DNA of 48,696 bases, from positions 186,001-234,696 of the forward strand of contig QPGO01000098.1 of the NCBI GenBank assembly GCA_008632985.1. Direction: 5' to 3'. Each line of letters starts with the position of its first letter. The first letter of the stretch is position 1. Both the position numbers and the translations under genes were made by a program. The notes beneath the pieces were generated by a model. It made no database searches. It saw nothing but the letters and a program-made list of their open reading frames with translations, and had not been told where the DNA came from. Positions 9,992-48,696 of the stretch are shown piece after piece. Source of the stretch: Psammoneis japonica. Its lineage: Eukaryota.

Positions 9992-10125
9992 ACACAGCCC
10001 CACACCACCCCTTCCTGTCACCTCCAACAGCCCCGCCTCCCGAATTTCTCCGCCCCGCCATCAACACAGCCCCGCACCACCCCTTCCTGACACCTCCAAC
10101 AGCCCCGCCTCCCGAATTTCTCCAT
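9992..10125 (+). repeat. 72-bp tandem duplication
   Basis: acacagcccc(a/g)caccaccccttcctg..cacctccaacagccccgcctcccgaatttctcc occurs at ~9992 and ~10064. Confidence 0.8.
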
Positions 10126-12339
10126 CCCGTCTCCACCTCAACCATGCCAATGCCATCAGCAATTGCACTGGTTGCCAACTGTGTTGCTCTGCTGGATTGA
10201 AAGCCAGCAGTTTTCCCAAAACACACTCTTTGACCAGGCACCTGCTAGCTCTCTCTGCTGTTTGTTGCTTCGGCATGGACGAGTCATTCCTGGACCCGGG
10301 GTCATTTGATGACCTTTCTGATTGCTCCTCCAAACACAACCCTTCTGATGACTCCTGTGAGAGTGACCCTTCTGATGTTGATCAATCCAACGATCACAAC
10401 TGGACCACCACCCGCGTGGTTTCCTTCCTTCTTTCCCCTCGGTTTGTCCCACGAATGACAATGCCACCGCATGCTTCAATGCTCCAACAACCTTTGACTC
10501 CCAAAGTTGGTGTCAACAAGACTTCCCAAATCTCATCTCTCATCATCCCCTGCATTGGTCTTACTCCGATTTGGACTCACCAGACCTGACTTGGCATGAC
10601 ACCATTCTCCCACCGATCACCTTCCGCCCAAGTCCTCCACCTGCTCCCCATCTTCCTTCATTTGCAATCCTTCCTCTGCCACCCCATTTTGCCCATTTTC
10701 TCTTTGATCCTTTGGCTGCTCAATCCCCAAGCTTCCATCCTTTTGTTGCCCTCCTTGAGTCTGCCACTTTCTCCACCAACTTGGCATTGCCTCCAACCCA
10801 CCCTTTTTTCCTTTCCTTGCGATCGCCTGCGCCGTGGCCCCCGCATTTTCACACCATCACCAGACCCTGCCCTCCTCCTTCACAAGTGCTTCTGCGATGA
10901 GACAGCCTGTGGTGAACCTCCCCCCTCTTTCATCTGCCGAGTTCCCACATCCCTTCTTCACTTTGTTGGCAACTTTCTTCTCCACATCGACAACTGCCTT
11001 GACAACTCTTTGACTGGCATCCGCACTCTCGGTCAACCCTTTTTTTCTCCATCTCCGAGCGCACTCCACGCAACTCTCCCACCACCTGTTTCTCCAAACC
11101 AATCCCCTCCAACACCACAGACACCCCAATCACCAATGAAAACAGCACCTTGAGTCTGAAGCCCCCAAATGCAGGAAAGCCAATTTCAGGCAACAACTGA
11201 ACTCATCATTCCAGCTAAAGCAAACAAATGTCAAAACATCAATGTGGAGAGAACAAGATGACCTCCAGAAATTCCAGGGCAGCCCAGCAACAGTCAAGAA
11301 AATGCAAGCTCCAGCCACCCACCTGACAACCCCTGTGCACCAAATCTGTGGCTGTGGATGCAAAAAAGAGAAACAAGTGACAACTTTTAAGTCTGTGCAT
11401 CATGGGCAGACTTGGACATTGTGTTTTGGCATGAGTGTGCAGGCCCTCCACTTCTTCATGCTGTCGTGTGTTGTTGCGTGGCTGTGCAACAAGCCAGTTG
11501 TGGTGTCATGAGACAAAGGCAGCCCAGAAAACCCAGCAACCTGGCAAAAACATCTTGTGCAAAATTTGCACTGAAAGAGTCTGTCAATCAGAGCATGGCT
11601 TCAATCAGAGCATGACTTGGGGGTTGTGGCATCATTTTTTGGCACGGAAGTTGTGCCAGCAAAAACTGCAAACATGCTGACAGACAGACTCTTTGGCCAG
11701 CTTTGCAGATTGAAAAAACAACAATGAGACAAGCAACACAATGCAGAAAAGCACTCTGGGGAGTGAGTGTGGCTCATCATGGACAAGTGCCAAATGAGCA
11801 AGCAAAGCCTCCTCTGGTGGATGCTTTCAAGGGACAATGTTGTCAAAAAAGCTGGTCTGTGTGGTTGTTGTGTCAACACGACCAGCCAATGTTTCAGCCA
11901 CAAGCGCAGCAGCTCTCTCTGGAACAAGGAGAAAATGAAAGTTTTTCTGCAACCCCCCAGTCAAGGCTGCAATCCCAATGATGACCTCACCAAGCTTGCA
12001 GTGAAAGATGGGGAGGGCATTTGTTGCCAAAAAGTTGCCCATGTGTGCAGGCTTGGATGTGGAAAAAAGGGCTCATTTGACCCATCTGGAAAGGGTGGGA
12101 GTCATGTCACAGAGGAAGCAGCGCACCTTTTGCCAGTCAGTCATCACATGAGTTTGACAAAAACAAGCATCATCTTTGACATGTTGCCAACAGAATTGCT
12201 CCACAGTTTCTGCAATGACCAGCTTGCATCACTTTGATTTGGGGCTGCAGCACCCACATCAAGCACCTGCCATCAAATGTTGTGAGGACATTTGACTGAG
12301 TTTGTGGCAAGGATTGTTGGCATTTGCAAGCAATCTCAT

Positions 12340-13185
12340 GGATGTTTGCTTTGTTGTTGGACTCAAGCAGCACTCAGGCCCTGGCTGCATGTGTGAAAAC
12401 TGCTGTGGATGCCAGTCAAAGAGTCATCAATTGTTGGCAATGCACAGCACAGATCTGAGTGTGCTGTGGTGGCCACCAAGTGCTGCACACATTTGCTGTT
12501 GAGCCCAAGTGGCGCACCCTTTGAGAACACAAAACATGGGCAAAATCTCATCAGATGAGTTGGCTTGTGTTTGTTCAGTCTGCAATCCCATGGTGCATGC
12601 AACACAACATGTTTTGTGTGGTTTTGGCAACCACTCTGCAGGCACACCTGCACACTTGTCACCCACAAAACAAAGTGTGCATGCACCACTTTGAATCTCT
12701 GTGTGACAAATCTCCCATGACTGGCTTTCAGATGAAAATGTTTGTTGTGTTTTGCAAACCAACCATGCTGGCTTTGTTGCTGGACTCTCAAGCAGCACAC
12801 AGGCCATGGCTGCATGTGCTGACACTCCTGCTGTGAATGTCAGACAAAGAGCTGTTGATTGTCAACCATGCACTGCACAAATCTGAAGGCTGTGGCCACC
12901 AAGCACTGCTGCAACACAAGATCTTTTCCAGCACCAGGTGACATGCTCAACCACACATTTGATTTTGAGCCCAAAAGTGACACACTCTTTGACACAACAC
13001 AGAACATGGGCAAAAACTCATCAGATGAGTCAGTGTGCAATCACATGGTGCATGCAACATGACATGTTTTGTGTGGTGTTGGCAACAACTCTGCAGACAC
13101 ACCTGCACACTTGTCACTCACAAACAAAGTGTGCACGCATCACTTTGAATCCCTGTGTGACAAATCTTCCATGGCTGGCTTTAAG
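12340..13185 (+). repeat. Diverged ~430-470-bp tandem duplication
   Basis: Shared blocks such as aacatgggcaaaa.ctcatcagatgagt (~12533/~13003) and catgttttgtgtgg..ggcaac.actctgcag.cacacctgcacacttgtcac (~12608/~13063). Confidence 0.8.
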
Positions 13186-14899
13186 CTGCCTGAAATTGTC
13201 TGTTGTGTTGTGCCTTTTCCTCCTCTGTGCAATGGAAAATGAAGAAAAATCACATGTCAAATGATGCTGGTGACACATGGATGTGGTTTCATTGGTTTGT
13301 CAAAATCTTCACATTTAAACAAAAGCTTGTTTTGGCATGTGTTGAAAGAACATGTGACAGCAAGCAACAAAATGAGTTGACTGTGTTGTTGCAAGAAAGC
13401 TGACAAATGAACTGCTCAAGGCAGGGTTGGCGCCAAAAGACAAAGCTGGCTTTTGTGTGGTGGATGGGCTTTCAACCCACCGCACAATGAAGGAGGACCA
13501 AGGAGAAGCATGGCAAAAATGGTGAACACCTGGAAAGCTGCTTTTCAGACAATGGTGAAGCATTGTGGCTGACTGCAAAACCAGCCCAACTTGGGCAGCT
13601 GGTGCAACCACATCATTGCACCCAACCAACCCCAGCCAGCAAATTGTGCCACAAAGAAACAAGGAATGACTGGCTTTTGAGCACACAGTGCACTTCTGTG
13701 CCACCCAGCACAATTTGTCAATGATGTTGCATTTGATGCCAATCAACACACAAGCACCACACCATCAAGAAAGCACAGCTGACTTTCCAAATTTTGAAAG
13801 CAACATTTGGTTGGGGTTCCCTGGCCTGTGCAACAACCATGCCGCATGCTCTGGCACATGCTTTGAGCAAGGACAACAACCAAGGAACAAGCAGTGCACA
13901 AAAGGTGAGGGTCACCCACCCAAGTAAAAAGGCATCAACCTCTGTGTTGTTTTGCATGCTGGCATCCAAAGAATGGCAGTTGCTTTTGAGTGCTTTCACA
14001 AGCAAAGGTTTGTGGCTGTTGTCAGAGGAGTGACTCCATGCCCATGCCACAGATTTTTTTCTTTTCAAATCTGCCAATGACTTGCATGTCTCTCTGTGTG
14101 ACATGTTGCCAGCCAATTTGTGGTGCCCTGCATTCCCAAAGAGAAATCTGATCTTGAACTTCAACAAAGGCTTCAGCAAAAAGCAAAAATTTGACCTGGG
14201 TGCAGGTGAAGAGTTTGCAACTTGTTGCAACCACGCCCAAAAGCTGCAACACCAGATGCCTGCCTTCTGTCACAAATTTGCAAAATGAAAAAGGAGCTGC
14301 AGCTGTGGCAGAGAAGCAGCCAGTCAATCCAATGAAGAAGACAGATCACCATTTTTTGCCCAAATGGGGTCCAGCAGCACTGCCAACGAGAAGGGCTGGA
14401 GAGCTGGCAAAGATTTGAGTGCTGTGTCTGTGACAACCCATGCCATTGAAGCATGTGAACAAAAAGGTGTTGCAATGACCTCAATCTCTTCCAAGCTGAA
14501 AGCAGCTCTCTCCAGCTTTTAGCACCATTTGAGCCTGGTGTCTGTTTGTCCTTGAGGAGGCTGCCAGACTCAATCTCTGGCAGATGATGCTGACCCTGAC
14601 ATGTCAATGCTGTTCTGGCAGAGCACAAAAAAGGCAACTCACACAAACACACAATGCTGGTGACACACCTGGCCCTTCCTTTGTGGCAACCTTGGACAGA
14701 GGACCCCTCCTGTTGCAGTGAAATCAGTGCTTTGCTCAGAGGCAGAGCCAGGTGCACGCCTGTGGTCAGACTGTGCTTCAAGAATTTTTTTAGCCACCAT
14801 TGCCTGCTGGTGCTTTTTGTGATCTTGCTGCACTTTTTCCTTGAAGAGCAAATGATGAGACTGGGTGGGACCTTGGCAAGGGAGCATTGAGGTGCAATC

Positions 14900-15620
14900 C
14901 AATGAGAGCACAAATGTGTCAAAATGATCTGCAAAGACCAACCAAGCATCCTGTCAGCACAAAATCACAAGCAGTGTTTTAAAAAAAAAACAAGACATGC
15001 CAAAAGGTTGTGCCTGCTTCTTGTGAAGTGCCTCCACAGCAGCTCTGAACAAACCAGCTGCTTGTGTTCAGATTGCTCACAAGTGAAACAAAAATGGCAG
15101 GACAAGTCACATGCCAGCCAGTCAGAACCTGCTTGCCTCCAATGTCAATGCCCTGGCTGTGTCACTGCTTGTGTCATGCTGTTCTTGTTGACTCCATTGC
15201 AGAAAAGATGTGTCAGGAATGGACACGCTTGAGCAGTGGTGGTGGCAGAGAGCATTGAGACCAACACCCCCCTGAGACAATGATTGAAAACAGTGCTTGC
15301 GATGCAAAGCTGTTGGGATGGCACAGCACAAACATTTTGACAGCCACTCATCTTGCATCCCAGAGCACTCTGTCTTTCACACAACCAAGACTCTGTCTGA
15401 GAAACTGTGCGACACTCACATTGTCTGCAACCATCCAACAAACTGCCATTCCTCCATGTGCATCTCTTGCAAATGCTTTGCTGAAGCCAAGAAAAAGGCC
15501 AAGACTCAACTCTTCCTTGCTTGATCCACTGAAAGCACTGAAAGTCTGGCTCACATGCAGAGCAAGTGGACAAGCCCCCTGGGCTGGGCAGCAGGTTGAC
15601 ACTGGATTTTCACACAAATC
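14900..15620 (-). pseudogene. Possible relic of a non-LTR retrotransposon reverse transcriptase
   Basis: FLGFSKAF (~15490, cf. LDFSKAFD) is followed ~70 codons later by SQGGV(L) (~15270, cf. QGxxLS). No intact YADD. Confidence 0.3.
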
Positions 15621-18269
15621 TCAACAATGAGCATGGTGGAAGAATGTGATCCACAGGGAAAGGAGCTGTTTCAGCTGTTGCTGTGCCAATGCAGGTGTGA
15701 AACCATGTGTTTTGCAGAAATGGCTGTCGATTTTGGGGCCAATGCCATTGCACCACTGGGTCGCTCTCAAGAAGTTTCTTGATGTGCGCCAGTCTAAATG
15801 GAGACCAGACTCTGTGACAAAAGACACCTCTCTCTGTTTCAAAAACAAAGGATCCCATTGCAGAATTTTGACTTTGCACTGGTTGGCAAAAGATTGCCAA
15901 GATCATTGAGGAGATGAAGCTGCCAAATGCAATGGCAAAACTCTGGGCCACCCAACATTCAGTGGGTTTGAGGATGATCCAATGGTGAGAAGGGCCCTCA
16001 GCTCTCCCTTGCAGCTCTCCTTTTGGGACATGACATGTGTTCACACAAGGAGTTGGCAGATGCAGTCAAAAAAGCAGGGGGTTTGCTTGCAAGGAACTTG
16101 CAGAAGACTGGGAAAGAGCTGCACGCTGCACAAAGCTCTTCAAGAAGACTTTTTGGGTGTGGAAGGAGCAGCCTTCAATTCCAGCAATGTGGCGCCATGC
16201 CTGACAAAGGGCTTTTGCACAAAAAATGATTGATGATGGGTGCCAAAAGTGCTCAAGTGAGTCTTCCATTTCTCACTTTACCACATCAAAGATGAGAGTC
16301 ATTGCAGGAACCAGAAATTAATTGTGGCATGTGAAGGGTCCTCAGGACATGCTCAGGACATGACAGTTGCAATTTTCAGGGGGCAGAGCATGCACAGATG
16401 CATGCTGTGTGCAACAGCAAGCTGTTTCTGAATTGTTGTGTTGACAACAAGGAGGAGCTGTCCAATGGAGCAGAGCACAGGCTGCACACCTGAACTGCTT
16501 CAGAGGCACCACATTTGGTGCTGGTGAAAGCAGTGGAGGAAAAGGAGCCAGCAACCTTGATGAACAGGAAATGCACAACAACAACATTGCAATGAAAGAC
16601 AACCCAGCCTGTGCTGGGGGAGGGGTGAGGGGGGCATCACACCTTGAAGCATTGTTGCTCCACAAGGATGCCAAGGCTGGTTTGTTTCTTGATTTTAAGG
16701 ATGAAGTCAAAGGGTCAGCACATCCTCTGTTGCCAACACCCACACTTTCATGCTTCGAAGCCTCAGCTTGTTTGATTAAAAACTGTCAATGTGGGCAAGC
16801 TGGTGGAGCTCATTGCAGATGAAGACACACTGCTTGCTTTTTCCACAACTGTCATTGATGCTCTGACATCTCTGGCTAAACTCAAAATGCAAAAGTCAGG
16901 GGAGAAGCTTTGGCTGCACAAGCACACTCTTCCACAAAGTGCAATGGTCATGGCTGAAAAAGCCAGAGTTCTCACATGGATGATTGACTGTGTGTGCAAG
17001 AAAGGCACTCAACATGCAACCGACGCTGGCACTCCCAACATTTTGCTTGTTGGTGGAGCCATGACTCTTGCTGCTCACAAGGGCATGAAGAATGTAGTCT
17101 GATTTTAAGCAACAAAATTCTTGCTTTGATGAAATCAATGAAGCAGCGCTGGGGAGCCACAAAATTCACAAGGCTGCTGAGCTGGTTGCAACATCATGTC
17201 ACTGTCAGACTGGGTGTGTGGGTGAGAGTCTGCTTTGAATTTGGGAGATGACTGTTTTGCGTCTGTGTGTGCTGATTTGGTCATCATCCAGCCCAGAGAA
17301 GCCAGCTTCCATTTCAAATTGGTGGAACAATGTCATCTTTTGTCATTGCAAGCCTTCACAGCAGTTGCCTCAAAAAGAGAGAAGACACCAGCAGTCAAAC
17401 AAATGGTGTTGGAGACCAGCTGGTGCAGATGGAAGTTGTCCAGAGATGTGACAGAGGATTGTCAGTGGTGTCATGCAGAAACAATGCCAGATCTTGTGCA
17501 GGAAAACCAATGGGATCAGCAAACAGTTGGTGATCAAATGACACCAAAAAGGATGACTTGTGTTCTTGCTGGAAAGGGACACAGCAACAGAGGCAGCACT
17601 TGCACCCCAAAGAGTGAAGGACTTGATTGAACAGCAGAGAAAAGAAGCAGCATTCTTAAAGACCAACTGGCAAGGACAGAAGCAGTCCAGAGATGGGACA
17701 TGCAGATTGTCAGCAGTTTCTGCTGAACCACACAGAATTTGCACTGGAACCTGTGCAGAAAATTTTGAGATGACAGAAGATCACAAGAAATGACAACCAG
17801 CATGCAAACCATGCCGGCAAGGCTTCGACACCCATCATTTTCCAGCCACCAAAAAATGTTTTGCATCATGCTGAAACAAGGTTGCACCATTTGCAACTGT
17901 GGACGAAAGGGGCTTGTTGGAACTGACAAGACACCATCTGAGAAGGGCAACATTAGCACGAGAAGTTGCATGGAAATCCACTCACAATGTGCTGTGGGTG
18001 TGCAGAGCTGACATTGAAAAATGGGTGCTCCAGCGTCCAAAACATTTGTGAGCAATGTTGCTCAATTGATGAAGGCTTCAGGGCAGGTTCTGAGAACTTG
18101 ACAAAAAAATGAAAGCACCCCTGAATCTTGCCCCAAGTCCCCCTTTTGGCACTGTCATTCCTGGCATGCCCAAAGGGATGGCGCCGCCATGTCACACTCA
18201 ACAACAGCCTTGTCTTGGTGATCAAAACAACATCTGTGTCATTTGGCAAAGACTGTTTGAAGGGTCTGC

Positions 18270-18480
18270 ACTCAGAAAAGTGGACAGCAACAGTTGACAC
18301 TGTGGATGGATGCTCTAGTCAGAACAAGCTTGTGCACGCGCAATCTCCATGAGCAAATGACCCCACAGTGGGTTGCAGCTCCCCAAGTGCCAGTGGGTGC
18401 AACACATGGCAGATGCACCTAAAAATGCCATGTCGCAGCATCTGTCAAGGCAAGGACAGAAATGGACAGCAGCACCTTGC
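18270..18480 (+). pseudogene. Possible relic of a DDE DNA transposase (DGCxxQ(N/Y)K ... HGKxxxD type)
   Basis: VDGCSSQNK at ~18302-18328, then a frame-broken QGK..EMDS some 40 codons later. The spacing is compatible with this motif pair. Confidence 0.3.
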
Positions 18481-20451
18481 TTTTGTGCCAGAGCTGTCAT
18501 CAAAAGAGGAGCTTGGTTGCTGCTGATGGGTTTAGTTGGGCATCAGCAGAAGTGCTGCCAGCTCTTGTTTGTGTCAAGGGTGGGTGCTTGCTGTCATGAC
18601 CAATCTTTTGAGTTCTTCAGCCAAACACCTGCATTCTCTTGCAACTGTGCAACCCATTCCCAAAAAGAAACAGAGAAAGTGCAAACAAAGCCACTTCAAT
18701 GTTGCTCAAAGGGGATAAAAAAATGCTCCAGAATTTTTCACAAAACTCCAAACCAGCCATGTCTGAAGGAACTTTCATCCAGCTCAAGCAACCAACAACA
18801 AAAATTGCACCAAATCCAACTGTTCAAGCATCATGATTGCATGGGCCCAGGAAGCACACACAGTGCCAAAAGAGCCCAGGCACTGTGATGAAGAACACCC
18901 AGTGGAAACAAAAAAAGGAAATCCAAAGTCAACAAAGTGGTGGGGTAAAAAGCACATGCCTGTCAAAGGATTTGAAGCACCAAAACCAAATGTGTCTCAG
19001 AAAAGCTTTTGCTCACTTCCAGAAACTGATTCTGAAAGACCATCATGAAATGCTCTGCCACGATGCAGTCAATGCAAGTGTTTCAAAATCTGTCAAACAG
19101 CAGCCTGCGCAGCTTTTGTCATTGAACAGCATCTCTTGTTCATGCACAAATTCTCATTTGGCCATGCAATGGCATGCCAAAAGGGCTGAAAGAGGGAGCA
19201 CATGGTGCAGATTGTAAGATGTTGCAAAAGGTGTCAAAATGCTGGTTGAAGAAGGGGATGGGGTGCTGTTGTGAGCCACTGACTGGTGCCCGGTGCTGCG
19301 CGCGTCATGTGATGAGAGGATGCAAAGTTCCAGAAGAAGTGGCCGCTGACCAGCAATGTGCAACACATCTGGCACACACATGGGAGACCTGAACACTGGG
19401 GATGTGAATCAATCACTGCACAGTGTGTGTTGTGACCTTTGCTGGACCAAAGCTGGAGTTGCAGCACAGCTCTGCTCTGCAGCTGGATGTTTTTGGCCTT
19501 CATCTCATCACTGGCCATTTTGGCATTGACCAGCAGACTCAATTTACAAAGATGCTTGAGCCACAAAATTGTTTTGCTGAGAGTGACACACCTTTGCTGG
19601 AGGAGAGGGCACATCTGTGAAGCACATTTTGAGCACATTTGACAGAGGACATGCTGCTGCCGCTGTTTTGGAAGCAAAAAGCATGAGCAGGAGAGCAGCT
19701 GTGTCGCCAACCTGACAGAGGAGTTGACAAGCTTTCAGGGGTCAAAGTGCATCATTCAGCATGTTGTGTTGCTGCAACAAGATCAGGCAATGAGTGGGCT
19801 GTGAAGAAACAGCGCGCAAGCTGCCCTGGTCGGTTTCTCCGTCACGGCACACGAGAAACCAGCAGCGGAGCGTTGACTCAGCTGCCAACATCTGGGAGGC
19901 ACGGACTTTCCGAGTGAACTTCATGTGTGATGCATTTCAGCAAAGGCTTGCAGTGTGTCATGTCAAAATGGCACACAGATCTGTGCCACAGTTGAGTGGC
20001 TTATGTGCCATTGACAAACAATGTTTGAGTGGTTGCCTGCGCAGTGGCTGCAATGGGATGGTTAGCAAGCGATGTAAAAATCTCTGCAGAAATGAGAATT
20101 TGCATCGCCGGCCGGGTGCAAAAATTTTTCTGAAGACAGTTTGTTATTGTAAGCTAAAATAATCGCATTTCATCGGTCTTTTGCAAAAAATTCGGCCTCA
20201 GCTTCAACCAGAAATTTCAGCAGCGCATCGATGCAAAAAAAAATTTGGAGTCGCATCGATCCTATCTCCCTGCGCCGCAGTCGTTGACTGCTGATAACAA
20301 AGCTCCAGAACCTCATCATATGGCTCATACATCAAACTCCACTTCCACTTCTGTTGCTTCTGAAGTTATGCCCAATTCATTGAATACCTGGGAGAATTTG
20401 GCGCAAGATCCAGCCGACGACTGGATGCATCGACGCTGATTCAGACATGCT

Positions 20452-35570: not shown

Positions 35571-37124
35571 CCATGCAACAGCGCAAGTCGTCGTACCGGA
35601 TAACTGGTTATTCTTATCTAATCCACATTTCTTATATGCAAGTTTGGGCTAGTAGTGTCACTTTTTCTCTTGAGTGATGTGCGACCAATCTTGGACCTTT
35701 CTGGATCGACCGATCGTGAAGACGGGTGCGATTGATTCTTCGACAAATGCTACAAACGCGTTCATCGTGTTGTTCAATCAAGCAGCAGTGAGAGAAGATG
35801 CCGCTTATGCGCGTAACATTGTATTGCCGCGACCCGTGTCGCGTGAAAAGTAAAAATGGACAAGTAACTACCAATTTATTAAGACACGCCTCATCTTTGA
35901 ACTACGTCTTCTCTATAGTAGCATCATGTTTGTTGATGATACACTCTACGCAAAACGCACTGGTACGAAGTCCCAATTCCGCGACATGCGCCAAGTCGAC
36001 TAACCATTGCTTCCCAAGCAACGGACAGTTTGGGCAGGTCCAAGTCCTGGGTGAGGAGTCCCCCCTTGTCGATGCGCCCCAAAGACAACATCCATCATTT
36101 CAGGGTGCGGACTAAAGAATCGGTCCTTTTGGGTGAGACTTCCTCCTTGCTGCCAAGCACCAGCATCTCCCAGGTCGTTCCTGGAACAAGTGTGTTGCAT
36201 TTCTTCAAGCAAAACAGAGAAATGACTGCAAGTGTGAACCAAGGCTGTGCTGAGAAAACGATGAAAACAATCCCTGCACTGGGTCAAACAATGCTCTTCT
36301 GTGTCCAATGAAGCTGTCTTGCCCCCCTCGACTCAAGAGTGCTGCAACCACTGATCCAGCATTGATTCTCACAAATGAGGACCGCCTCCTCATGTTTCTG
36401 CATGCTGCACCAGACACAGCCACGTGGGGCATCCAGGGGAGGGAAGCCAACCAAAATCTCCTGCAACAACATTCCCACCAAGCATGCCACGCAACAACAA
36501 GCCCATCTGGTTGCCATCTTCAAACTCTTCAGGAAGCAAACTGCACTCCATGCACACATGTGAACCAAACAACCAGATTTGACACCAGAGCTGTGCTGTG
36601 ATGACCCCTCTGCATGGCAACAATGCACTCATGTGTGCAGAACAGGATCACCCTTGCTGACACCTGTGACCCAAGCCCAGCTTGAGCAACTCATGTGTCA
36701 GCAACAGCCAGTCTTCTGCAGCCCAAAAAAACTTGATCAAGCACCTGTGAATGCACGCTCTCAGGGTCAGGGTTGTTGGGGTCGGGGTTGGGATTTCGGG
36801 CATTGTTTGGTGAGAGTGTGTGTGTGTAAGAAGTTGTGTGGGTCACTCGCAAATGAGAAAGAGAGCTGTGCAGTGGCACAAGGTTCACAGTGGCGCACTT
36901 GTTTGGAAAGAGAGATTGTGTGATGACACATGATGGAGGTCAGGAATGCTGAGCTTGTCTTTGGAGTCAAAGAATGGCGCAACAATGAAAAGACAAACAA
37001 GCTCCATTGTGTCAACAAACTGCAAATTCATGAGGTTGTGGTCAGCTTTGAAGATTGTGCATCTGCGAAACTGTCCGAAACAACTGCTCGAATGTGAAAG
37101 TGTGCATGTTGTTTGTCCTCTGTT

Positions 37125-37262
37125 TTGAGCACATTTGCCACAAATGTGCTGAGCCAACTGGGTGCCCCTGGGCACAATGGTGACATGCTTGGCATGGATT
37201 GTGCAAAGGTTGGCATTTTCAAATGAGCCAACAAGACATGCTGCTCCAGAAGCTCCTTGTGC
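37125..37262 (-). pseudogene. Histone H3 C-terminal relic
   Basis: [38 protein letters not shown] aligns with H3 [37 protein letters not shown]. Confidence 0.85.
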
Positions 37263-37617
37263 AGGGGCTCTGACCGCTTTTCCCACAATGTGTGGCAGGC
37301 ATGGTGCAACACAATGGGTGCATCATTCTTTCCCATGAGCAATCAGCCAAAACACTTGATGCTGATCCGCTGTGCACCGACACTTTGCGCACACTTTTTT
37401 CTTGTCATTTTCTTGTGCTGGCACTTTGTGCAAACTTCTTTTTTCTCAGTTTCGTCTTGAACAAATGCAAAAGTTTTGACACCGCCATGTCCCCTGTCAA
37501 ACAACCTTGGTGCAAGAAGTCAGTCCTCTGTTTGACTCCAAACAACAATGCATCTTTTTGTTGATTTCACCATCTTGTTAAAGAGCTTGCCAAAGGAGTC
37601 TTTCAAAAGAGGGTGTT

Positions 37618-37680
37618 GAACCTGCACTGTCAAACATTCCAAGGTGCCGCCAACGCAACCTGCGGCAGTCTTGTCTTGGC
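37618..37680 (-). pseudogene. Possible histone H2A/H2A.Z-like relic
   Basis: TAAGCVGGTLECLTVQV versus H2A.Z TAAVYSAAILEYLTAEV. The match is short. Confidence 0.35.
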
Positions 37681-38250
37681 CCAGCAGCTAACCAGCCATG
37701 TGTGAAGACGAAAAAAATTTGAATGCTTGTAATGTGGGTCGTGGGCTTCATTTTTACTTAGAGGCGATGGTCTCTCTTTTCCGTTGCCAACGCGCCAGCC
37801 CAGATCAAATTTTCTAAAGACGAAAACAATGAGTTGTGCGCGAGAGGTGAGGCTGAGACAACGAAATCACGAAGCCATTTCGCGTTCGTCACAACAACTT
37901 TGCTCTGGTGCATCGGCCATCTGTCTGTCGAGGAGGCAAATTTGCATTAAAACAACAAGACAATGAAAGAAGAGACAGGGCAAGGAATCATGTCAATGAA
38001 GGACGTGCGCATTGCTGAGGCAAAGTAGTGCGGCATTAACACAGAACTCTCGCTGGCTTTGGGTTTCATTCGCAAGGTCTGTCAATTCCCTGAAACACGA
38101 TGCGGATGGCGAGACGCACCCAGAGAACTCCTTTCCAGTGACGCTTTTAGCGGCGCAGTCCTGCCGCATGTCCAAATGGATGAGAAAATGGATCGCCTCA
38201 GTCCAGCGGCATGGTGTGGAGCATGGAGGCATTCATCATCTGTGTGTGGT

Positions 38251-41200
38251 CTACACAGTGCGTTTTATGTATTGTCGTGAGATAGGATCGACGCGGAAGG
38301 GCGTCCTGAGTTTCGAACACTCTCCCCATGGAGTCGCTTCGATTTCAAACTTGAAGGTCACGGCAGGGCCTTCACCGGCATCCGAAAAGACTTCCCCATG
38401 CCACATTTGCTTCTCGTGATCACTGTTTGCATCTGATTTGGCCTCAAGGCCTACAACGATCTTTACATTCCTCTCTTTTGCAAGGATAAATCGCTCTGTA
38501 CGAAGGTGACCCCATAAAACTCGGAAGGCGCCATCTGCGGTGCCACCAGCAGCGCGTTTAACGCCGTGGGAGATGGCCTCTATGATGCATCGAACCAAAT
38601 GTGAGACTGGAAAAGCAGGCACGTCGTCAAAATGACCTGCGCACATCTCCTCTGGAACAGACTCCAGCATCAGAACTGTTTTGGAAGCATTGAAGCTCTT
38701 TCTTCCACCGAGAGGCTCGTTGCATTCACAGTCAGACCCGACGAGCATTGCTGGAGGCAACGTCACGAGAGCAGGCTGCTCAGAGTTCGGAACAGCAACT
38801 CCGCATCTCGTCATTCCCATGACAGAATGAAAATGGCCGGCCGGAATCACATTGTGCTCGGTGCGCAGCGAAGCAATCAGCTCTCCCGTTGCTGTGTTGA
38901 ATGCTTCCGAGACTGCCACCCCGCGATTTTTCGGCAAGTCAAGAGACTCTTTCCGGCCAACTGGGCGGCATGAGGTCACCGGAACGCCCTCCAACACCGG
39001 AGAAAGAAGTGTTGACTCCAAAACGGGGTAGCAAGATTGCTTGTCCTGGAGATTTTTGTCCAGACTCAATGCATGCGAGCCGACAATCGCCATGTGGCGA
39101 GCAAGCTCAGCAAGAGGAGCACAGCTTGTCGTACTCTCTGCTCCATCGATCGTTTCGGGATACGCAGTAGCCTCGACGGAGTCCTCGTCTATTTGAACTG
39201 CATCTTTAAGATTGTTGTAAGGCTCACGAACAAGGACGCGATCTTGGAATGGAAGGATGTTGTTGTCGCCGTGGCCGACGGCTTCCTTGGGCGGGCTCTG
39301 CAATGTTTTGAAGTCTTCCGAAGAACCATTCTCAAGCATTTCCTCTAGAAGTTGTGAAGCCAGAGAACGAATGCTTGGAGCAGAAATTGGGGTCATTGCA
39401 CTGAGTCTTTGTCCCGTGAGATCCTCAATTTTCGTCGAAAGTTGCACGGCTACCATAGAATCAACGCCAAGGTCGCGAAGCGATTTTTGATCATCCATTT
39501 TGGAAGAATCCATTCGAAGAACGAAGGCAGCGGCCTCTGTGATCATCGAGCTCACCCGTCGGACAGCATTCTTAGGGTCAGCCAACAATTCCTCTCGAAA
39601 CTTCTCGGTTTTACTCTTTGCTGACGCCTTGGCGCTAGAATGCCGTGCCTCAGCCTCCTGAATCAGGCCCCGCATGTGAGGGAATTCAGCACCCTTCCAG
39701 CTGGAATCCCATTTCAAAAAGTCTGCCTTTGCAACTAGACACAAGGGCTTGTGTTCATCACGCTCCTTGACAGAAGAAACTCAAGTGCTTGTCGGACCAT
39801 TTTCATCGACGTCGGTGGGATTCCCAAAGAGGAAAGATGCTGCTTCACTGCTTCATTCCGTGCCACGTGCCCAATGTCAAGTGATCCCAGTGCCATGGCC
39901 AAAGCCGGAAGTCCTTCATTGCTGCGCCTGGAAGCAAGGCCTTCCAAGAATGCATTGGCAGCAGCGCACATGGTTTGACGACCATTGCCAAACATGCTCG
40001 AAACAGAAGAAACTAAGACAAAGTGATCAAGTGTGGGAATGTTGCGAGAAGCTGCGTCAAGGCACATTGCGCCTGTGGTCTTTGCTTCCAGGCTCTCTTC
40101 GATGTCATGAGCTGTCAACATTGTGACACCCAAATCATTGTGCGAGACTGCGGCATGGAAAACACCAGCCACAGGTGGGATCGTCTCAGTTCCGTCAATT
40201 TCTTGGAAAAGGCGCTCTACAGCACGCATGTCCGACACATTTACAGCATGAACCGATGCAATCCCTTCGTTGGTTGGCATGTGAAGTCGCTTTTGATCAG
40301 CCTCGTTCTTGCATGTCCCAGACCGGCTCACTAGCACAAGATGTCCGGCTCCTAGAGAAGCAAGAACCTGTGCCAGCTGAAGTCCGAAACCACTGAGTCC
40401 GCCCGTAATGACATGGGATCGATCCTGACGAATGTTGGCTGGAGAGGCAGTGACATCCATGGGAAAGTGCCCGCTTCTCCAATCAATGACAGCTTTGCCA
40501 ACACATTTGCTGGAAGAAAGACACTGGAAAGCTTCCTGTGCCTCTTGAGGTTGGAAGACGCGCGTCGGAAGTGGCGCGAGTTTTCCTTCCTCCAAGAGTT
40601 GCATCACGGCAGAAAAGTGTTTTTGTACGACGGAGTGGTCATCGTTCTTCGACTGTTCTTCGATTAATACATCCAGGTCAATGGCGTGGTGTGACATAGA
40701 TCGGCAGAATGGAGTCATCGAGATGCGATTACCTGAAGCCATGTCGCCTTTTCCGATGTCAAGGTAGCGCCCGCCTGCAGCCATTGCTCGAAGCCCGACA
40801 TCGAGACTCTCTCCTGCTTGCGCAGACAACAAAGCCTGGACACCCCTTCCGTTTGTCACACGAAGCACTTCCTCGCCCCAATTCAATGAGCGCGAGTCAA
40901 AAACATGTTCTACGCCCAGTTGTTCGCGGAGGTAATCTCTTTTTTCTTGGGTGCCAGCGGTGGCGATAATCTCAGCACCAAGCAACCTTGCTACCTGTAT
41001 GGCAGACAGACCAACACCCCCAGCTGCAGAATGAATCAGAACTGTCTCCCCCGATTGTACGTTGCCGGCAACCACAAGAGCATAATATGCTGTCAAATAC
41101 ACGAGCCCGCAGCTAGCAACAGGAGAAGAAACATTGTTCGGTACCTTGATACACATCCCCTCTTCCTCCACTATTAGAGACCCCAGCTGCGATCTAGTGG

Positions 41201-44200
41201 CTGGAACAGCAACCCTGTCGCCAACGCGGATGGATTGCACATTCGGCCCAACCGCAGACACGATTCCAGCGCAGTCCAACCCAAATGATTCTTGTGAGTA
41301 GCTCCCAGAGAGAGCTCTGGGGTTGATACTACCCAGAACCTTGAGACAGTCTTTGAAATTAATGGATGAACAGTCGACTTCAACTGCCACTTGTTGACCC
41401 ATTAGTTGCGAAGCACTCCTTTGGATCGGCTCAAATTCGATTGACGACAAGTCTCCGGGCCTAGAGACAACAAGCCTTGCTCCAGAATTTCTGACTTGCT
41501 CTTCCACCATGAACGAACTGCCACTGCCACATGAGATGCCGTCCGGGAGGTTCGCGTGTCCGGCTTCGTCAAGCCAGTGATGACTCAAACGAGGTACGTA
41601 GGCTTCCGTCATTCCGGACCGCAGCGCAACATATTGCTGACCTTCGGCCCGCGCAGCATCGACGACATCTGATATTCTGTCAACATTAATCGCTCGATCC
41701 AAGTCTACGATGCTAGCCGAAAGCTTTGGGTGTTCCACATTCGCACTTCGAACGAAACCCCACAAGGCAGCCTGTACAGGATCGACCGATTCACCTTCGT
41801 TAACTGCCACGGCTTCAAGCGACACAACTAATAGTTTTTGGCCTATAGACAAGGCACCCTGAGTAGCAAGAACAAGATTGCCAATCATTTCAGAAGCGGT
41901 CATGCCAGCCTCGTAGTCCATACAAGCGAAGAAAATTGCAAGTTCAGCGTCGGTCCGAAGTTCACCCATTTCCAGCCCCGACGCTGTTGTAATGAGCAGT
42001 TCTTCTGGCTTCACGCTAGATGAAATCTCGACCCTGTGACCTCCTACCGAACGCTCCCATTCTAACGAGTACAGATGATCAGATAGAGGGGCTTCTTCTG
42101 TACTCGATTTTGGGATGGGAGCACAGCAGAGATCGTTCACAGTCAACTGCAGCTCTCCTTTACCTCCAAAGATCTTAATATCGCCCACAGCCTCGAGAGA
42201 ACTCAGCTTTTTAAGCTCGACGATCGCTGTCACGCCAGTTTCCACCTTGTTGTATGCAATGACGGAGCCGACTTGAACAGGCAACCAACCGGTGGGCCCT
42301 CCGTTGCGAGTCTTCTGGATCATCTTGACAAGAACTTGAAAGGCTGAATCTAGCAAACCCGCATCGACTATGCTGTTGCCAACGGAATTCGGCTGAATAA
42401 TCGAGATTTGGGCCTTGTCGCTCGCCAACGTAATCGATGAGACGCATCGAAAGCGTGGACCATAGGATAGGCCGACGTCAGCAAGATCGTTGTAAAAGTG
42501 CTCAATGTCGACTTTGATCGGGACCGGGGAAGAAGGCAGCGAAGGAAAGGTTTCCGTATTGCCCAGCGAAGCAAAGGAAGAAATGCTAGAATCCACAATT
42601 CTTCCGCTGCAGTGGTAAGACCAAGGCTGTGAATCCCCTCCCGAGCGGCTGGTGATATCAAACCTGCATCGGTCATTTGTGTTGACTTGTATCTGCAACT
42701 GTGTCGCATTCCGCATTCCATTTGATTGCTTCTTGGCCAAGGGGAGTGGAGCCTGGAACTTCATATCTTGAATCGCAATGGGCTTGGCGATGCTCGATTT
42801 GCTCACTGATGTAGCAGTAGGATCACCCTGGAGACAAGCGACTTCAAGGGCGGATTCTATGTACGCAGCCGCTGGAAGAATCGCTTGGTTGTCGATGACA
42901 TGATCTTCCAGCCATTTATGGCGAGAGGAGTCAAGGCGGGTGTTCCACTGAGGAACCCCCGCTCCGACAGAAAACTTATCGAGGAGTGCCCCCGGTGGGA
43001 TATCAGGTGCTAATGATCGATCCCAGAAGGTCTCCTTCTGCCAAGAGTATGTCGGAAGACTTGTCAGGCGCAAGAAAGGGACATCTGTATCTGTAGTCCT
43101 TGGCCACGCAATTTTCGTTCCGGTGACGAAAGCTTGCGCTAGAGCAGCATCGAGAACGTTTGCTTCTTGCGTTTTTCGCTTCATAAGAAACGCGGTCGTC
43201 ATATCTGTAATTCCCTCTTCGGCGCCAACTGTATGGATGGACGCTGCGAGTACAGGATGAGGGCCTATCTCTATGAAGTTCCTGCGGCCATCGTGAAGAG
43301 CAGCGCGCATGGCGCCAGAAAAGTCAACAGGGTCACGCATGTTGCGCCACCAATAATCTGGAGAGTGAATACTTCCCTGGATTTTGCCGCCTACCGATGT
43401 CGAGTAGAGAGGCACTTCTGGAGGACACACAGATTTCAGACCGTGTTCGCCTCCTAGCATCGACATCATGTCACGTTCGATATTTTCTGCTTCCATGTGA
43501 TGACTGTGATAGGCGACTTCGACTTTCATCTTTGCGTAGAAGGTACCTTCTGGGATTGCATCGCGCAAGTCCGCCAAGGCATCATTGTCTCCCGCCACTG
43601 TCACCATATCAGCTGAATTATAAGCCGCAATATCGATTCGGCCACAACAGAAGCCTCATGTATGTATTCTGTCATCTTCTGAGCCGATACACCAATTGCG
43701 ACCATACCACCACGCCCAGCCACTCTCTGCTGGACAGTTGCTCTGGCATGAACGACTCTGGCGGCGTCCTTGATGGAAAGGCAGCCAGCAGCAACAGCAG
43801 CTGTCACCTCGCCAACGGAGTGACCAATGATCGCGGAAGGACGAACAAGACGATCCTGCAACAACCGAAGCAGCCCAATCTGTAATATGAAGTTTGCCGG
43901 TTGGGCCACGTCGTTTCTGGCCATCTCGGACTCGTCGGGAGAAGGCTTGAACATTTTCGGAACAATTGGATCACCCCCTGCTGAAACGTATGCCGCATTG
44001 GCTTCGTCGACGCCACAACGGAAAATCGGATCGCTAGCGTAGAGCTGGGATCCCATAGCCCACCACTGCGGACCCATTCCAGTGAAAACGAAAACACACT
44101 CGTCATCTGAACCACGATGCGTTTGTCCGACGAATACGTCTCGAATTCCCGGCTGTCACAGCTTGTTTCCGCCAATACCGACAGTCCATGAACAAAGTCG

Positions 44201-45774
44201 TCAAGACAAGCCGCTCTAAGGACGGCCCTGCATTCGAAGTGAGATCGATGAACAGCAAGAGTGTAGTAGAGTCGATGCAGGAACAGCGACTCTTCTTCTT
44301 CAGTATGGACGCGCTCTTGCTGAATATAAGCCAGGAGGTCTTTGGCATAACTCTGGAGCGCCTCTTGCGATCTTGCAGAAACCGGGATGAGGTATGAATA
44401 GACATTAGTGGTGCTGAAGCTAGGGGCTGTAGCGGGAATAGGGTGTTCAATCGCAGGAGCAGCAGACAGCAAGGCGTGGCAGTTTGTACCACCATAACCA
44501 AAACTGTTCACAGCAACGACTGCATTCTCGGAATCAATAGGCCGAGTCTCATTGGGGACCTCGATGCCGTAGCTTGGACCAATTTCAAGCTCCGTCCTCA
44601 GACTTCCTTTGAGAATAGAGTGCTTCGGAATCAGCCCCTTTTGCACGGCCATCGCAGCCCTAATTATTCCGGCAACACCGGCAGCTCCCTCACAGTGACC
44701 AATGTTGCTCTTCACACTTGCCACCGCAATGGGGCTGCCTGCGACGTGATGCTTTCCATAGCTTTCAGCTATAGCACCAATCTCACACTTGTCGCCTGCT
44801 TTAGTGCCAGTGCCGTGAGCCTCAATGAACACAACGTCATCGGGAGCAATGGAAGCACGACGGAGGGTTTTAGTCATCAGGCGGTGCTGAGCATCACGGG
44901 AGGGCGACGCAATTCCTACGGTGCGTCCATCCTGGTTGATACCAGTGCCGCGAATGACAGCAACAATGTTGTCGCCATTCATGATGGCATCCTCGAGGCG
45001 ACGGAGAACGACGACGCCACACCCTTCTGCACGGGCATATCCATCGGCGAGATCGGTGAAGGTCTTACAGTGTCCATCAGGAGCAAGGAACCCTCCCTTG
45101 CTCATCCACACCATCATCTCCTTGCTGTGGATAGCATTGACGCCACCAGCGAGAGCCATGTCACACTCCTCATCGAGAAGAGCCTTCACAGCTAAATGAA
45201 TTGCCACGAGCGAGGACGAACAGGCCGTGTCGACTGTAAGACACGGGCCTTGGAGGTCGAAAGCGTGAGCTAGACGAGCCGAAACCATCGTCTGCGTCAT
45301 GGAGAATGCCGTGGTGGTACCAGCGCTTTCGATGTCCTTGCCCTGGACTAACATGTTGTCCATGGTGAAGCTTCCCACGAAGACAGCCGTATCGGATCCT
45401 TGAAGAACTTCTCGAGTAATACCGGCATTTTCAACAGCCTCCCATGTCACAGTCAAGAGAAGGCGCTGCTGAGGATCAAGTTTCTCGGCTTCGACAGGAG
45501 AGACATCGAAGAAAGATGTGTCAAAGTCACACATGTCTTTCTTGGCAAGGAATCCTGCACGATCCACGTGGGATATGCCAGGCACGTTCTTGTCAGCATC
45601 ACTTTCAAGCTCGCGGCACCAGCGTTCGCGAGGGATGGGAACGATACCATCGCCATCGGCTTGAGTAAAGTTCCAGAGGTCTTCAGCGTTCTTAACGCCT
45701 CCAGGGAAACGGCAGCCAGTGCCAACAATGGCGATGGCATCCTTGGGGAAGAGGTTTGCCGCGTTGAGCTTCAT
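38251..45774 (-). CDS. Intronless single-module highly reducing type I polyketide synthase, KS-AT-DH-psiKR-ER-KR-ACP-(hotdog-like C-terminal domain). Frameshifts at ~44120, ~43630 and ~39740; possibly a pseudogene
   Basis: KS DTACSSS/EAHGTGT/GHCEGAAG/NSFGYGGTN. AT VFVFTGMGPQW, GHSVG, AYHSH. DH WLEDHVIDNQAILP, LLDSAFQ. ER LIHSAAGGVG. KR ITGGLSGFG. ACP LGVDSM. ORFs 43804..45996, 43601..44077, 39735..43607 and 38251..39744 are consecutive. Probable ATG at 45774. Confidence 0.92.
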
Positions 45775-46230: not shown

Positions 46231-46679
46231 CTGCAGCATGCATGCAGACAAAAGGTCATTTTTGTCACGCCCTTTGTGACATTTAAAGGCTGTGACACGT
46301 CGCCGTGATGCATTGACTCTTGTCAGCAGCTGCACGTTGCACTCCTCCCCATGCATCGTGCGTCCACGCGGCTCTTAAATGACGTGCACTGACACTGCAC
46401 GGTTTTGGCGGAACAGTGTGGGTACGTGCGAAGGAACATGCAGAACTGCACAGAGTTTTGCGCGTTCGACAGTGATCAACGTTGCTGCAGACAACTCCCA
46501 CTCAGGGTTTCGAACCCCTGGCCTCCTGCCTGATGGTCACGATGAACCACTCCGCTGTGAATTCACAATGCAGCATGCATGCAGACAAAAGGTTGTTTTT
46601 GTCACACCCTTTGTGACATTTAAAGGCTGCAACATGTCGCCGTGACACGTTGACTCTCATCAGCAGCTGCGTGTTGCAC
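46231..46679 (+). repeat. ~110-bp direct repeat (46231..46341 and 46569..46679)
   Basis: gcagcatgcatgcagacaaaagg..ttgtcac.ccctttgtgacatttaaaggctg...cagcagctgc...ttgcac occurs twice. Confidence 0.9.
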
Positions 46680-46767
46680 GTCTCGTCAGTTCTCCCACAG
46701 CTCTCTAGTTGCAACAACTGGAGCAGCCGGGATTTCCAACGTGGTGGACTGGGATGGCTTTGCCAGT

Positions 46768-46862
46768 GGATGCACAAGCCTCATCCCAAAAACCCAAGCT
46801 GGAGCGGGATGGCTTCACTGGCGGATGCACGAGCCTCATCCCAAAAAACCAAGCTGGAGCGG
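46768..46862 (+). repeat. ~55-bp tandem duplication
   Basis: ggatgcac(a/g)agcctcatcccaaaaa.ccaagctggagcgg occurs twice. Confidence 0.8.
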
Positions 46863-47319
46863 CAGGGCCAGAGGGCGAGAGAGGTGGGAGCGTTAAAAAC
46901 TGTCTGAGACGGCCTGTTGCTCTTGGTTTGCTCTTTGGAAGAATGTGAGAAGAGCAAGTGTTTTTCCAAGAGAAAACGGCAGTTGCTCTTTTTGCCTGCA
47001 CGTGCACGCTCAAATTTAAAAACTGCGGCCACAAATGACCCAACGGCCAAAGTGGGGTCATTGCCTCATTGAGCTGCACGAGGTTGGCAGCTCAGCTGTC
47101 AATTTCTTCTGGAGGGCAAGTGGGCTGTGTTCTCCAACCCGCCAACACCCAAAACACCTGTGCTAGAGTCAACTTGCATGGGCATGCACACGGCACTCTG
47201 TGTTTCAGATTTTGCCTCACTTTCTTGAGCTTCTGCACCAAATGAGCCACTTGTTCCCACACAGAAAGCTCGCAACAGCACACAGCTGGCTCTGTCCATC
47301 AGACAAAAGAACAAGCCTG

Positions 47320-47740
47320 GTGGGTTGGTGACAACCTTGTGGCAAGAATGTCCACGACTCAATGTTTTGCAAATTTCCTTTTTTGGACCCAACAAAGCCA
47401 CAGCTGTGCCCATCAAACAGGGCAACAAGACAGCTCACCCTGTTGCAGATGCACTCTGAGCTGGGCTTGCTGGCTTTGTCCAGCTTGCCATTGTTTGATG
47501 GAAAGCTCAACTTCCACATTGAGATGGGCACTCGTTCTTAAAGTTGTCCAACTGCAGAGACCAACAGAAGTGCGCTGCCCCTCCTCCCAGCAGAGCAGCT
47601 CCAGCAGCAAAAGCAACAGCCCCACATTTTGCAAGCTCTTTTTTTTCTGTGCAAATCTGCCATCTCAAAATTCTCAGAGATGCGGGTGTCACAAAACCTG
47701 ATGGTTTTGAAGCACATGTCTTGTTGCTGCAGCCAGAGAT
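47320..47740 (-). pseudogene. Degenerate third copy of the secreted-protein family (paralogs A/B)
   Basis: Colinear similarity to ~8500-8900 and ~25150-25570, e.g. tgatggaaagctcaacttccacat vs tgatggaaagctcgacttccgcat, and ttgaagcacatgtcttg. The translation shows WLQQQDMCF..ENFEMADLH. Confidence 0.85.
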
Positions 47741-47952
47741 GAGTGTGCAACAAGATGAGATGGTGGGTTCCGGCTCTGTTCCACAAAAAAGCAAAGCACA
47801 CCAAAGCTTTTCAACCTTGGTCTGCATGAATCCAATTGGTCAACTTGCACTGCACACACCAGTGTTGGCCAGGATTGGGCTGGTGGTGGTGGGGATGGAT
47901 GAAAGTGCAAAATGTGCACATGTGCATGGAAACCCCCCTGTGCAGACAGAGC

Positions 47953-48040
47953 NNNNNNNNNNNNNNNNNNNNNNNNNNNNNNNNNNNNNNNNNNNNNNNN
48001 NNNNNNNNNNNNNNNNNNNNNNNNNNNNNNNNNNNNNNNN
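47953..48040. other. Assembly gap (N run)
   Basis: Run of N characters. Confidence 1.
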
Positions 48041-48696
48041 ACACAGCAAGGGAGGAGCAACTGAAGCCATCTGCTGTTGTCTCCATTGCTCCGTCAAGAA
48101 GTGAGAGCACTGGTGTTGTTGTTGCAAACAGTTGCTCTCAGCTCAATCAGAGAGGTCATGGATGAGTCACATTGGCAGAAGGAGGGTGTTGAGCCCTTTG
48201 CTTGCCACATTTTCACATGAAGCTCCATGGCTGCAGGGTCCAGTGCACCTGTGTCATGTGCAGTGAGAACAGCAGCTGTTGGTCACCGCTTTTCTCACAT
48301 GTCCTTCACAGGGCACTCCTGGGGCATCATCAACAGCTGGGACTGGCAGGCATTTGCCAGTGCAGCTGGCCTCCTCTCCTGTCCAAGCTGGATGACAGTG
48401 GCTGTCCAGTGCTGCCCATCAGTCATGGACAGGGCCACAAAATTTTGGATGGGTTGGAAAGTGTCATTTGGAGGGCTGTGGCCAGGCGGCATCCTGTGGG
48501 TTTGCAGGACATTGGCATTTGGGTGAAAGATGAAAGCACCGTCTTGGAGTGTGACATGAGCAAAATTGCACATGACAGGCGCAGCTTGAGACAAACGAGG
48601 TTGACATCAACCCTGGCACAGAGGAGTGCCATGCCATGACACCCGGTGCCTGAACGCAGTGGGCTGAGATGTCACTGGGGTCAAAGCCAAGGTGGT

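Follow-up and report, generated by a model that had tools for sequence, protein, structure and literature searches.

The 48,696-nt stretch of Psammoneis japonica DNA that we analyzed here (positions 186,001 to 234,696 of contig QPGO01000098.1; hereafter, "the window") carries an intronless gene for a type I polyketide synthase (PKS) whose 3' part has lost a large share of its TA dinucleotides. The gene lies on the reverse strand at 38251..45774, with an ATG at 45774-45772 and a TAG at 38253-38251, and was delimited by tblastn, Pfam matches, and its start and stop codons. Its domains, all on the same strand and listed here in the order of translation, are KS (44620..45741; the N and C parts of ketoacyl-synt, PF00109 at 2e-76 and PF02801 at 2e-36), AT (43116..44095; PF00698 in two open reading frames (ORFs), joined by tblastn across a frame break near 43645), DH (42105..42959; PF21089 and PF14765), ER (40485..41396; PF08240, PF00107, and PF13602), the ketoreductase KR (39879..40415; PF08659 at 5.5e-40, with alignment columns in 126 homologs), and ACP (39319..39558; PF00550 at 6e-9). 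A C-terminal domain of ~320 residues follows at 38254..39213. The gene thus has KS, AT, and ACP together with DH, ER, and KR on one polypeptide, as expected of a type I PKS, with the Pfam domains above their cut-offs. In the window it is spread over four reading frames, owing to three 1-nt gaps.

Two proteins, P0003 and P0004 (the latter of 2229 aa), are colinear with the PKS by tblastn from 45825 to 38338, across all four frames. They are its closest homologs, at 56% identity for P0003 and 50% for P0004 (over ER-KR), and the remaining relatives are bacterial PKSs at about 43% identity or less. The C-terminal domain is common to P0003 (tblastn, 43% identity) and matches no Pfam family at E up to 1; its neighbors in a language-model look-up are bacterial hypothetical proteins and FabA/ApeI-like dehydratases, which we take as a lead only. 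No second copy of the PKS was found within the window, in line with an earlier note on this DNA, made from its letters and ORFs, which had described the gene as single-copy-looking. Among six matches to the KR of similar length, the best has 37% identity and none is closer. An exact search of metagenome contigs for a 35-nt sequence beside the KR catalytic codon gave 0 matches, and a search of metagenome contigs for the DNA of the P0003 cluster gave 596 pattern matches, of which 0 were confirmed.

The depletion of TA is strong in the last 2.5 kb of the gene. From 40761 to 45825, over KS, AT, DH, and ER, we count 151 TA and 317 CG, which is normal for the window. From 38254 to 40760 there are 35 TA, versus 74.7 expected at the rate of the upstream part of the PKS (29.8 TA per kb), while CG is kept (147 versus about 157). 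Two tracts stand out by their TA positions and a Poisson test. The first, 38582..39028, has 0 TA in 447 nt where 13.3 are expected (P = 1.6e-6); the second, 39737..40625, has 6 TA in 889 nt. Within the second tract, the interval 39740-40215 contains 1 TA, versus 28.2 expected from base composition and 14.2 at the upstream rate (Poisson P = 1e-5); this TA, at 40014, is the sole one between 39736 and 40218. The same interval has 21 CG (31.3 expected) and 93 CA plus TG (59.5 expected). Between the tracts lies an island of 7 TA at 39029-39218. The earlier note had counted one TA in 39740-40215 with CG still frequent, had found the KS/AT/DH region normal, and had proposed a patchy TpA process operating independently of CpG loss; the counts, the alternation of TA-free tracts with the island, and the retention of CG agree with it on each of these points.

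As a control for protein sequence and codon usage, we used a codon-aware simulation in which the present protein is fixed and codons are drawn from the upstream part of the PKS. In 38701-40800, 26 TA are observed versus 70 simulated; upstream, the figures are 149 and 194. The depletion survives this control, so synonymous TAs and TAs between codons must have been lost too. The TAs that remain in the patch tend weakly away from the context RTAY (4 of 28, versus 54 of 158 upstream; P = 0.045), the same shift as in the blocks of TA-poor DNA described below. The patch has the features by which TpA hypermutation is recognized: changes from A:T to G:C, depletion of TpA, enrichment of CA and TG, and sparing of CpG. 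We conclude that the 3' patch of the PKS is a TpA-specific mutational footprint and not a product of chance.

A change of TA to CA or TG is predicted to turn the Tyr codons TAY into CAY (His) or TGY (Cys), and this is the outcome seen in the protein. The last Tyr codon is at 40766, and none follows until 39219, a run of 339 residues in the KR frame (the earlier note had put it at ~340) and of 173 more in the next frame. In the last 2.5 kb, downstream of 40766, P0003 has Tyr at 15 positions, of which nine are now His (6) or Cys (3) and two are Tyr. Upstream of 40766, none of 15 such positions is His or Cys and ten are Tyr (Fisher P = 0.0007). The C-terminal domain shares in the change, with His or Cys at 4 of its 6 P0003-Tyr positions; P0003 itself keeps Tyr throughout. 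By outgroup comparison, two residues of the window, the His at 39075 and the Cys at 39967, are derived. As both His and Cys arise, the changes from A:T to G:C at TpA are shown to occur on both strands, and they are regional and independent of CpG loss.

Among the residues affected is the catalytic Tyr of the KR domain. Its codon, at 39966..39968 on the reverse strand, is TGC (Cys) in the window, as the earlier note had observed, and the corresponding column of the YAAAN motif is Tyr in 126 of 126 homologs. That note had also named Cys or His at these positions in close functional homologs as possible grounds against its reading; in the catalytic column, no homolog has either residue. Of four other sites at which it expected Tyr, the one in RSHVITGG is strongly conserved like the catalytic column (Y in 110 of 126 homologs, H in 8, W in 6, F in 2). 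At the other three Tyr occurs only sometimes, and the expectation holds less well: the SMSHH site has F in 83 and Y in 34 of 125 homologs, with Y in the closest; the IGHVAR site has Y in 39 of 124; and the AFQCL site has F in 37, L in 26, Y in 20, and H in 14 of 126. The remaining catalytic columns of the KR are kept in the window, namely K (40082), S (40007), N (39956), and the TGG/glycine motif, which are found in 126, 126, 125, and 126 of the 126 homologs, respectively.

We then have to ask which of these changes are also found in reads. Two runs (X1 and X2) of one sample, with word shares of 0.83 and 0.60, were compared with the window over 37500-46500. They were studied as contigs, in which the presence of a variant is visible and its absence is not, since contigs drop alleles, and the counts of differences between the window and the reads given here rest on the 40 of 168 differences that were listed. 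At the catalytic codon, the X1 contig that is the sole one covering it has T at 39967 where the window has C, at a depth of 51.7 of 51.7, so that the codon reads TAC (Tyr). Of the residues of an active KR of the SDR type, Lys, Ser, Asn, and the NADPH motif TGGxGxxG are present in the window, and the fourth catalytic residue is Cys in the window and Tyr in the read contig. The same contig restores a Tyr at 39075 that is also found in P0003. Over the 38998-40128 interval that it covers, it differs from the window by nine letters and one gap; of the nine, seven have TA in the contig and CA or TG in the window, another has the two states the other way round, and the last is of an unrelated kind. 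In the rest of the PKS, 7 of 29 listed differences involve TA, which makes the excess in the patch significant (Fisher P = 0.0009). Between 39737 and 40217, the read contig has 5 TA versus 1 in the window, and most of the core of the patch is thus particular to the window's version.

Other parts of the erosion are common to the window and the reads. A contig covering 40416-40911 is identical to the window except at 40857, so the reads, too, contain the TA-free run 40416-40625 and a His at 40691. At all five sites where the window's CA allele could be checked, it was found in reads: X2 has it at 43963, 44599, and 45435, and another X1 contig, with an alternative depth of 29.7 of 62.3, has it at 45546 and 45597. 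Over roughly 41808-45500 (~3.7 kb), the X2 contig differs from the window by a single substitution, which is not of the TA type. Of the listed differences between TA and CA or TG, 13 have the mutated state in the window and 2 have it in the reads (binomial P = 0.007). Counted by their effect on the protein, the listed differences comprise 24 non-synonymous and 13 synonymous changes. We also considered a rule by which the mutated A precedes a pyrimidine and rejected it: the seven informative polymorphic sites split 4 to 3, which offers no support at such a scale.

The three frame breaks probably have a simpler origin. They lie between KR and ACP (39738), inside AT (43645..43647), and between KS and AT (44150..44151), all three at homopolymers, and every read contig that crosses any of them has one extra base: an additional A at 39738, one more base at 43645 in two X1 contigs and in X2, and one more at 44150 in X1 and X2 contigs, the X2 contig there being one that otherwise follows the window's version. 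The version of the gene in the reads reads through, as P0003 does. Over 9 kb, single-base homopolymer disagreements with the reads were found at 37555, 37941, 39738, 43645, and 44150, two of them extra and three missing in the window. The three frame breaks are best read as homopolymer undercalls of the assembly. An observation of the opposite kind was made at 43953, where an X1 contig has an extra T in a run of T that is absent from the window and from X2 and that would shift the AT frame there; the other haplotype may thus carry a frameshift of its own. Taken with the 24:13 ratio of non-synonymous to synonymous changes, the extra T gives a thin hint of relaxed constraint.

These results change what can be said about the state of the gene. 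The earlier note had described the PKS as caught mid-inactivation and had concluded that the TpA process can kill a single-copy-looking gene; it had also said that reads with TAC at 39966-39968 would speak against this. The X1 contig has precisely this codon and no frameshift at 39738, and the frame breaks at 43645 and 44150 are likewise filled in by the reads that cross them, so the death of the PKS is unsupported. The organism has a version of the PKS whose frame is open and whose catalytic Tyr is present, whether the window's own letters are real or not, and the catalytic Cys represents no more than a single allele or subclone, if it is not an assembly error. Modular PKSs include naturally inactive ketoreductase domains without the catalytic Tyr. 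The window's version resembles these in having the Rossmann fold, Lys, Ser, and Asn without the Tyr, and would be expected to be inactive; the difference is that theirs is a fixed functional design, whereas here the Tyr is found in the read contig and the Cys is unfixed or unverified. As a practical caution, no gene in this assembly should be declared dead on the strength of a frameshift or a single catalytic-site change until reads have been consulted.

The PKS lies between two blocks of strongly altered DNA. One begins ~0.7 kb beyond its stop codon (36002..37578) and has 2 TA in 1577 nt, with CG at 0.2-0.33 of expectation. The other, upstream of the gene (46430..48696), has 6 TA, and its CG falls from 0.54 to 0.1 of expectation. 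The largest block of this kind in the window is further away, at 10001..20000, with 27 TA in 10 kb. In all three blocks, TA is near 0, CG is strongly reduced, and CA plus TG is at ~2x expectation; the loss of CG is confined to such blocks, as CG is kept in the PKS patch. The TAs that survive in the blocks have a marked context preference: 26 of 35 are YTAR and none of 35 is RTAY, versus 18% and 30% in normal DNA (P = 2e-12 and 1e-5). A repeat copy inside a block, compared with a copy in normal DNA, shows differences of TA to TG and of CG to CA or TG. At the edges of all three blocks, the loss of TA is abrupt and complete, and that of CG is graded over 1-2 kb towards the core, which suggests that the TA process is faster or further-reaching than the CG process.

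Little in the blocks is recognizable. Over the 91 ORFs of the three blocks, Pfam gave one match, a histone fragment, and no family was matched in the 63 ORFs of the block at 10001..20000. The match is a dead C-terminal fragment of histone H3 at 37128..37259 on the reverse strand, in the block downstream of the PKS (Pfam Histone, 1.3e-5; phmmer versus H3 chains, 2e-10). Among its changes are some of Tyr to Cys and others of Arg to either His or Cys, along with many that are of neither the TA nor the CG type. At the near edge of this block, 37500-37800 is covered by one X1 contig at a depth of about 35, while neighboring places sum to ~64; as a hint only, neither contig depth nor missing coverage being evidence, this block-side DNA might be specific to one haplotype.

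Just upstream of the PKS, an element of ~110 nt occurs twice (46232-46342 and 46569-46679; 88% identical). The summed contig depth of X1 in the bin 46229-46500 is ~118,000, versus ~50-70 over the PKS, which marks the element as very high-copy, and many loose contig ends fall at 46232/46233 and 46342. Its two copies differ at several places as CA versus TG, as if each had mutated separately from TA or CG, and the CG of the window at 46367/46368 is replaced by TG or CA in the majority of read copies.

Other repeats in the window have a normal composition. Two copies of a 1.5-kb sequence (7941-9467 and 24605-26112; 78% identity), each with an ORF of ~390 aa that matches no Pfam family, have normal TA and CG, so duplication at such divergence is insufficient to draw the erasure. 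Tandem arrays with units of ~180-190 nt are found at 20450-22155, 28991-29940, and 33792-34645, again with normal composition, the last of them inside a gene for a TPR-repeat protein. The best named relatives of a dolichol-phosphate mannosyltransferase gene at 27945-28880, at 74-78% identity, are all from diatoms among the 120 matches listed, in agreement with a diatom source of the DNA.

How do the changes found in the window but not in the read contigs arise? In our view they probably belong to a real haplotype or subclone, to which we assign a probability of roughly 0.6, because the window's substitutions prove reliable where they can be compared with X2 (1 in ~3.7 kb) and because 5 of 5 CA alleles were found in the reads. 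The window would then contain one version, most likely one haplotype, of a single-copy diatom type I PKS (KS-AT-DH-ER-KR-ACP plus the unnamed C-terminal domain), represented in an assembly that undercalls homopolymers. The gene stands between two blocks of dead DNA in which almost all TA and CG became CA or TG. Of that process, the half specific to TpA, which changes A:T to G:C there on either strand, would have reached into the PKS without CpG loss, strongly in the last 2.5 kb and mildly at the 5' end. On the way, conserved Tyr codons would have passed from TAY to CAY (His) or TGY (Cys), and synonymous and between-codon TAs would have been removed as well. Part of this erosion is common to the read contigs and part is particular to the window's version, including TAC to TGC at the KR Tyr; the catalytic Cys would accordingly be an unfixed variant, either an allele or a subclone, in an organism that keeps an open-frame copy with the catalytic Tyr. 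Inferred in this account are the reality of the window-only changes as alleles, a possible action of the process in cis from the flanking blocks, and a chemistry that could be adenine deamination. A more tentative proposition, somewhat less likely than not, is that the eraser of TpA is at work at present, acts in cis on a single copy of the chromosome, and spreads patchily from the silenced blocks into a working gene; the 13:2 differences between assembly and reads, with the loss of the catalytic Tyr among them, would then be its product.

Several observations weigh against the haplotype reading and its extension to a process spreading from the blocks. The window's C at 39967 is in no read contig, with only T in X1 and no coverage in X2, and the seven patch-specific differences have no contig of the same haplotype with which to be compared. 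The window's consensus carries at least three homopolymer errors in the PKS. In 38254-38997, the agreement between reads and window is deduced from there being no listed row and from the 0.83 word share. At 40004, one of the TA-type differences, the window has Val, as P0003 and P0004 do, and the reads have Ile, so that by the outgroup this one runs in the opposite direction. As for spread, the TA-type differences show no significant tendency to lie nearer to the blocks than the others do (Mann-Whitney P = 0.32); none of the 13 lies in the central 3.1 kb of the gene (P = 0.008), but this interval was chosen post hoc. The erosion is also discontinuous, as the 3' untranslated region has 10 TA in 670 nt and the promoter region at 46001-46118 is TA-rich.

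Some of these points could also mean that the window-only CA and TG sites in 38998-40128, the TGC codon included, are consensus errors of the long-read type, with only the shared erosion being real and the read contig having the true sequence. Substitution errors linked to base modification are known in nanopore consensus sequences, and miscalls of this kind might result from a modification at TpA in the chromatin here. At the nine patch sites, the letters of the window are in no contig, nor are its undercalls at 39738, 43645, and 44150, the last of which is contradicted even by X2. We nevertheless consider this explanation unlikely. Where a same-haplotype comparison exists (X2, roughly 41808-45500), it shows one substitution and none of the TA type, and the five checkable CA alleles are all in read contigs. 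The read contigs themselves have TA-free stretches and the His at 40691; the high-copy element at 46367/46368 is mostly TG or CA in the reads where the window has CG, so that decay is seen in reads too; and the H3 fragment has the many non-TA, non-CG changes expected of real, old decay. The view that the single-copy PKS is undergoing inactivation, with the KR-dead Cys as its actual state, draws on the TGC codon, the three frame breaks, a 24:13 ratio that does not look strongly constrained, and the extra T at 43953, which would break the AT frame of the X1 version. We regard it as very improbable given TAC in the read contig, the missing base in every contig that crosses the breaks, and the intactness of all other KR catalytic columns and of all domains.

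Two further explanations concern the origin of the TA-free tracts themselves. They could have been copied in from a hypermutated paralogous pseudogene at another place in the genome, by gene conversion or recombination, which would explain their sharp edges and the unmutated island at 39029-39218 between them. It would call for a second PKS copy, none of which is within the window, and no read contig fits two places in 37500-46500; moreover, 8 of the 9 patch differences are of the TA type, without the other divergence that a paralog would bring, and there is thus scarcely any likelihood left for it. Least probable of all is that the scarcity of TA reflects codon usage, a selective disadvantage of TA, or a 3' half of foreign origin instead of mutation pressure. 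TA is under-represented throughout the window (observed/expected 0.41), and the next-nearest relatives of the PKS are bacterial at about 43% identity, as such an origin would have it. Against this, the depletion persists with the protein fixed and the gene's own codon usage, conserved and catalytic Tyr residues have been removed, TA/CA sites are polymorphic within the sample, and the closest homolog, P0003, retains Tyr throughout. A real haplotype or subclone that bears part of the erosion remains our preferred account of the window-only changes.

Three things are new here. A TA-only stage is seen inside a single-copy biosynthetic gene; the read evidence has TA and CA/TG states side by side in one sample, with a direction of 13:2; and the earlier view is corrected, in that reads support neither the frame breaks nor a fixed loss of the catalytic Tyr. 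No report of TpA hypermutation in diatoms was among the literature matches listed. So far there is a single report of TpA-specific DNA hypermutation, from a chlorarachniophyte and directed at integrated viruses; it was the only relevant one among the matches listed. The signature described here is in a diatom, reaches a working host gene, rewrites Tyr to His or Cys, and varies between versions of the locus in one sample. If it is confirmed with raw reads, the process would be wider in the SAR group (stramenopiles, alveolates, and Rhizaria), host genes would bear a cost comparable to the leakage of fungal repeat-induced point mutation (RIP), and such loci would make it possible to measure how fast the process is, how far it extends from silenced blocks, and which sequences it prefers. 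Were the tentative picture of an eraser active in cis to prove true, the locus would be a natural reporter of a eukaryotic defense by DNA adenine editing and of its collateral damage to host genes.

Two well-known processes offer themselves for comparison and were rejected as causes of the patch. Methyl-CpG decay does not fit, as CG is kept there and lost in the flanking blocks only. RIP works in the opposite direction, making TpA from CpA (C to T) in fungi, while in this non-fungal DNA TA is destroyed (A:T to G:C) and CA plus TG is gained. The likeness to RIP lies elsewhere: in the part of the source available (PMC2973834), hypermutation aimed at repeated or dead DNA is described as leaking into adjoining single-copy genes and altering their proteins. 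By this analogy, a spill-over from the flanking silenced blocks into the PKS is weakly suggested.

The closest known system is Bigelowiella natans, in which TpA-only hypermutation from A:T to G:C has been measured in mutation-accumulation lines (Mettrop et al., bioRxiv 10.64898/2026.01.13.699255). According to the accessible part of that report, the target there is integrated giant-virus and virophage DNA, and the likeness is as follows: the changes are almost exclusively A to G or T to C within TpA, they are regional, TpA is depleted and CpA plus TpG enriched, and the sites are polymorphic within a strain. For the chemistry, Mettrop et al. propose adenosine deaminases (ADAT2/3, ADAR), enzymes that convert A to I, which is read as G, and that prefer a 5' U or T, which fits TpA to TpG on either strand; as a proposal by analogy, adenine deamination could also be at work here. 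There are also differences. At our locus, the sole sign of a raised mutation rate is an indirect one, TA/CA polymorphism within one sample with its 13:2 asymmetry. The organism is a diatom, and in its older blocks CpG has been lost as well, a feature that Mettrop et al., in the part available, do not describe. Finally, no foreign, viral, or transposon target was recognized here: what lies beside the gene is a dead H3 fragment and unrecognizable DNA, and what the process has entered is not viral DNA, as in B. natans, but a single-copy biosynthetic gene of the host.

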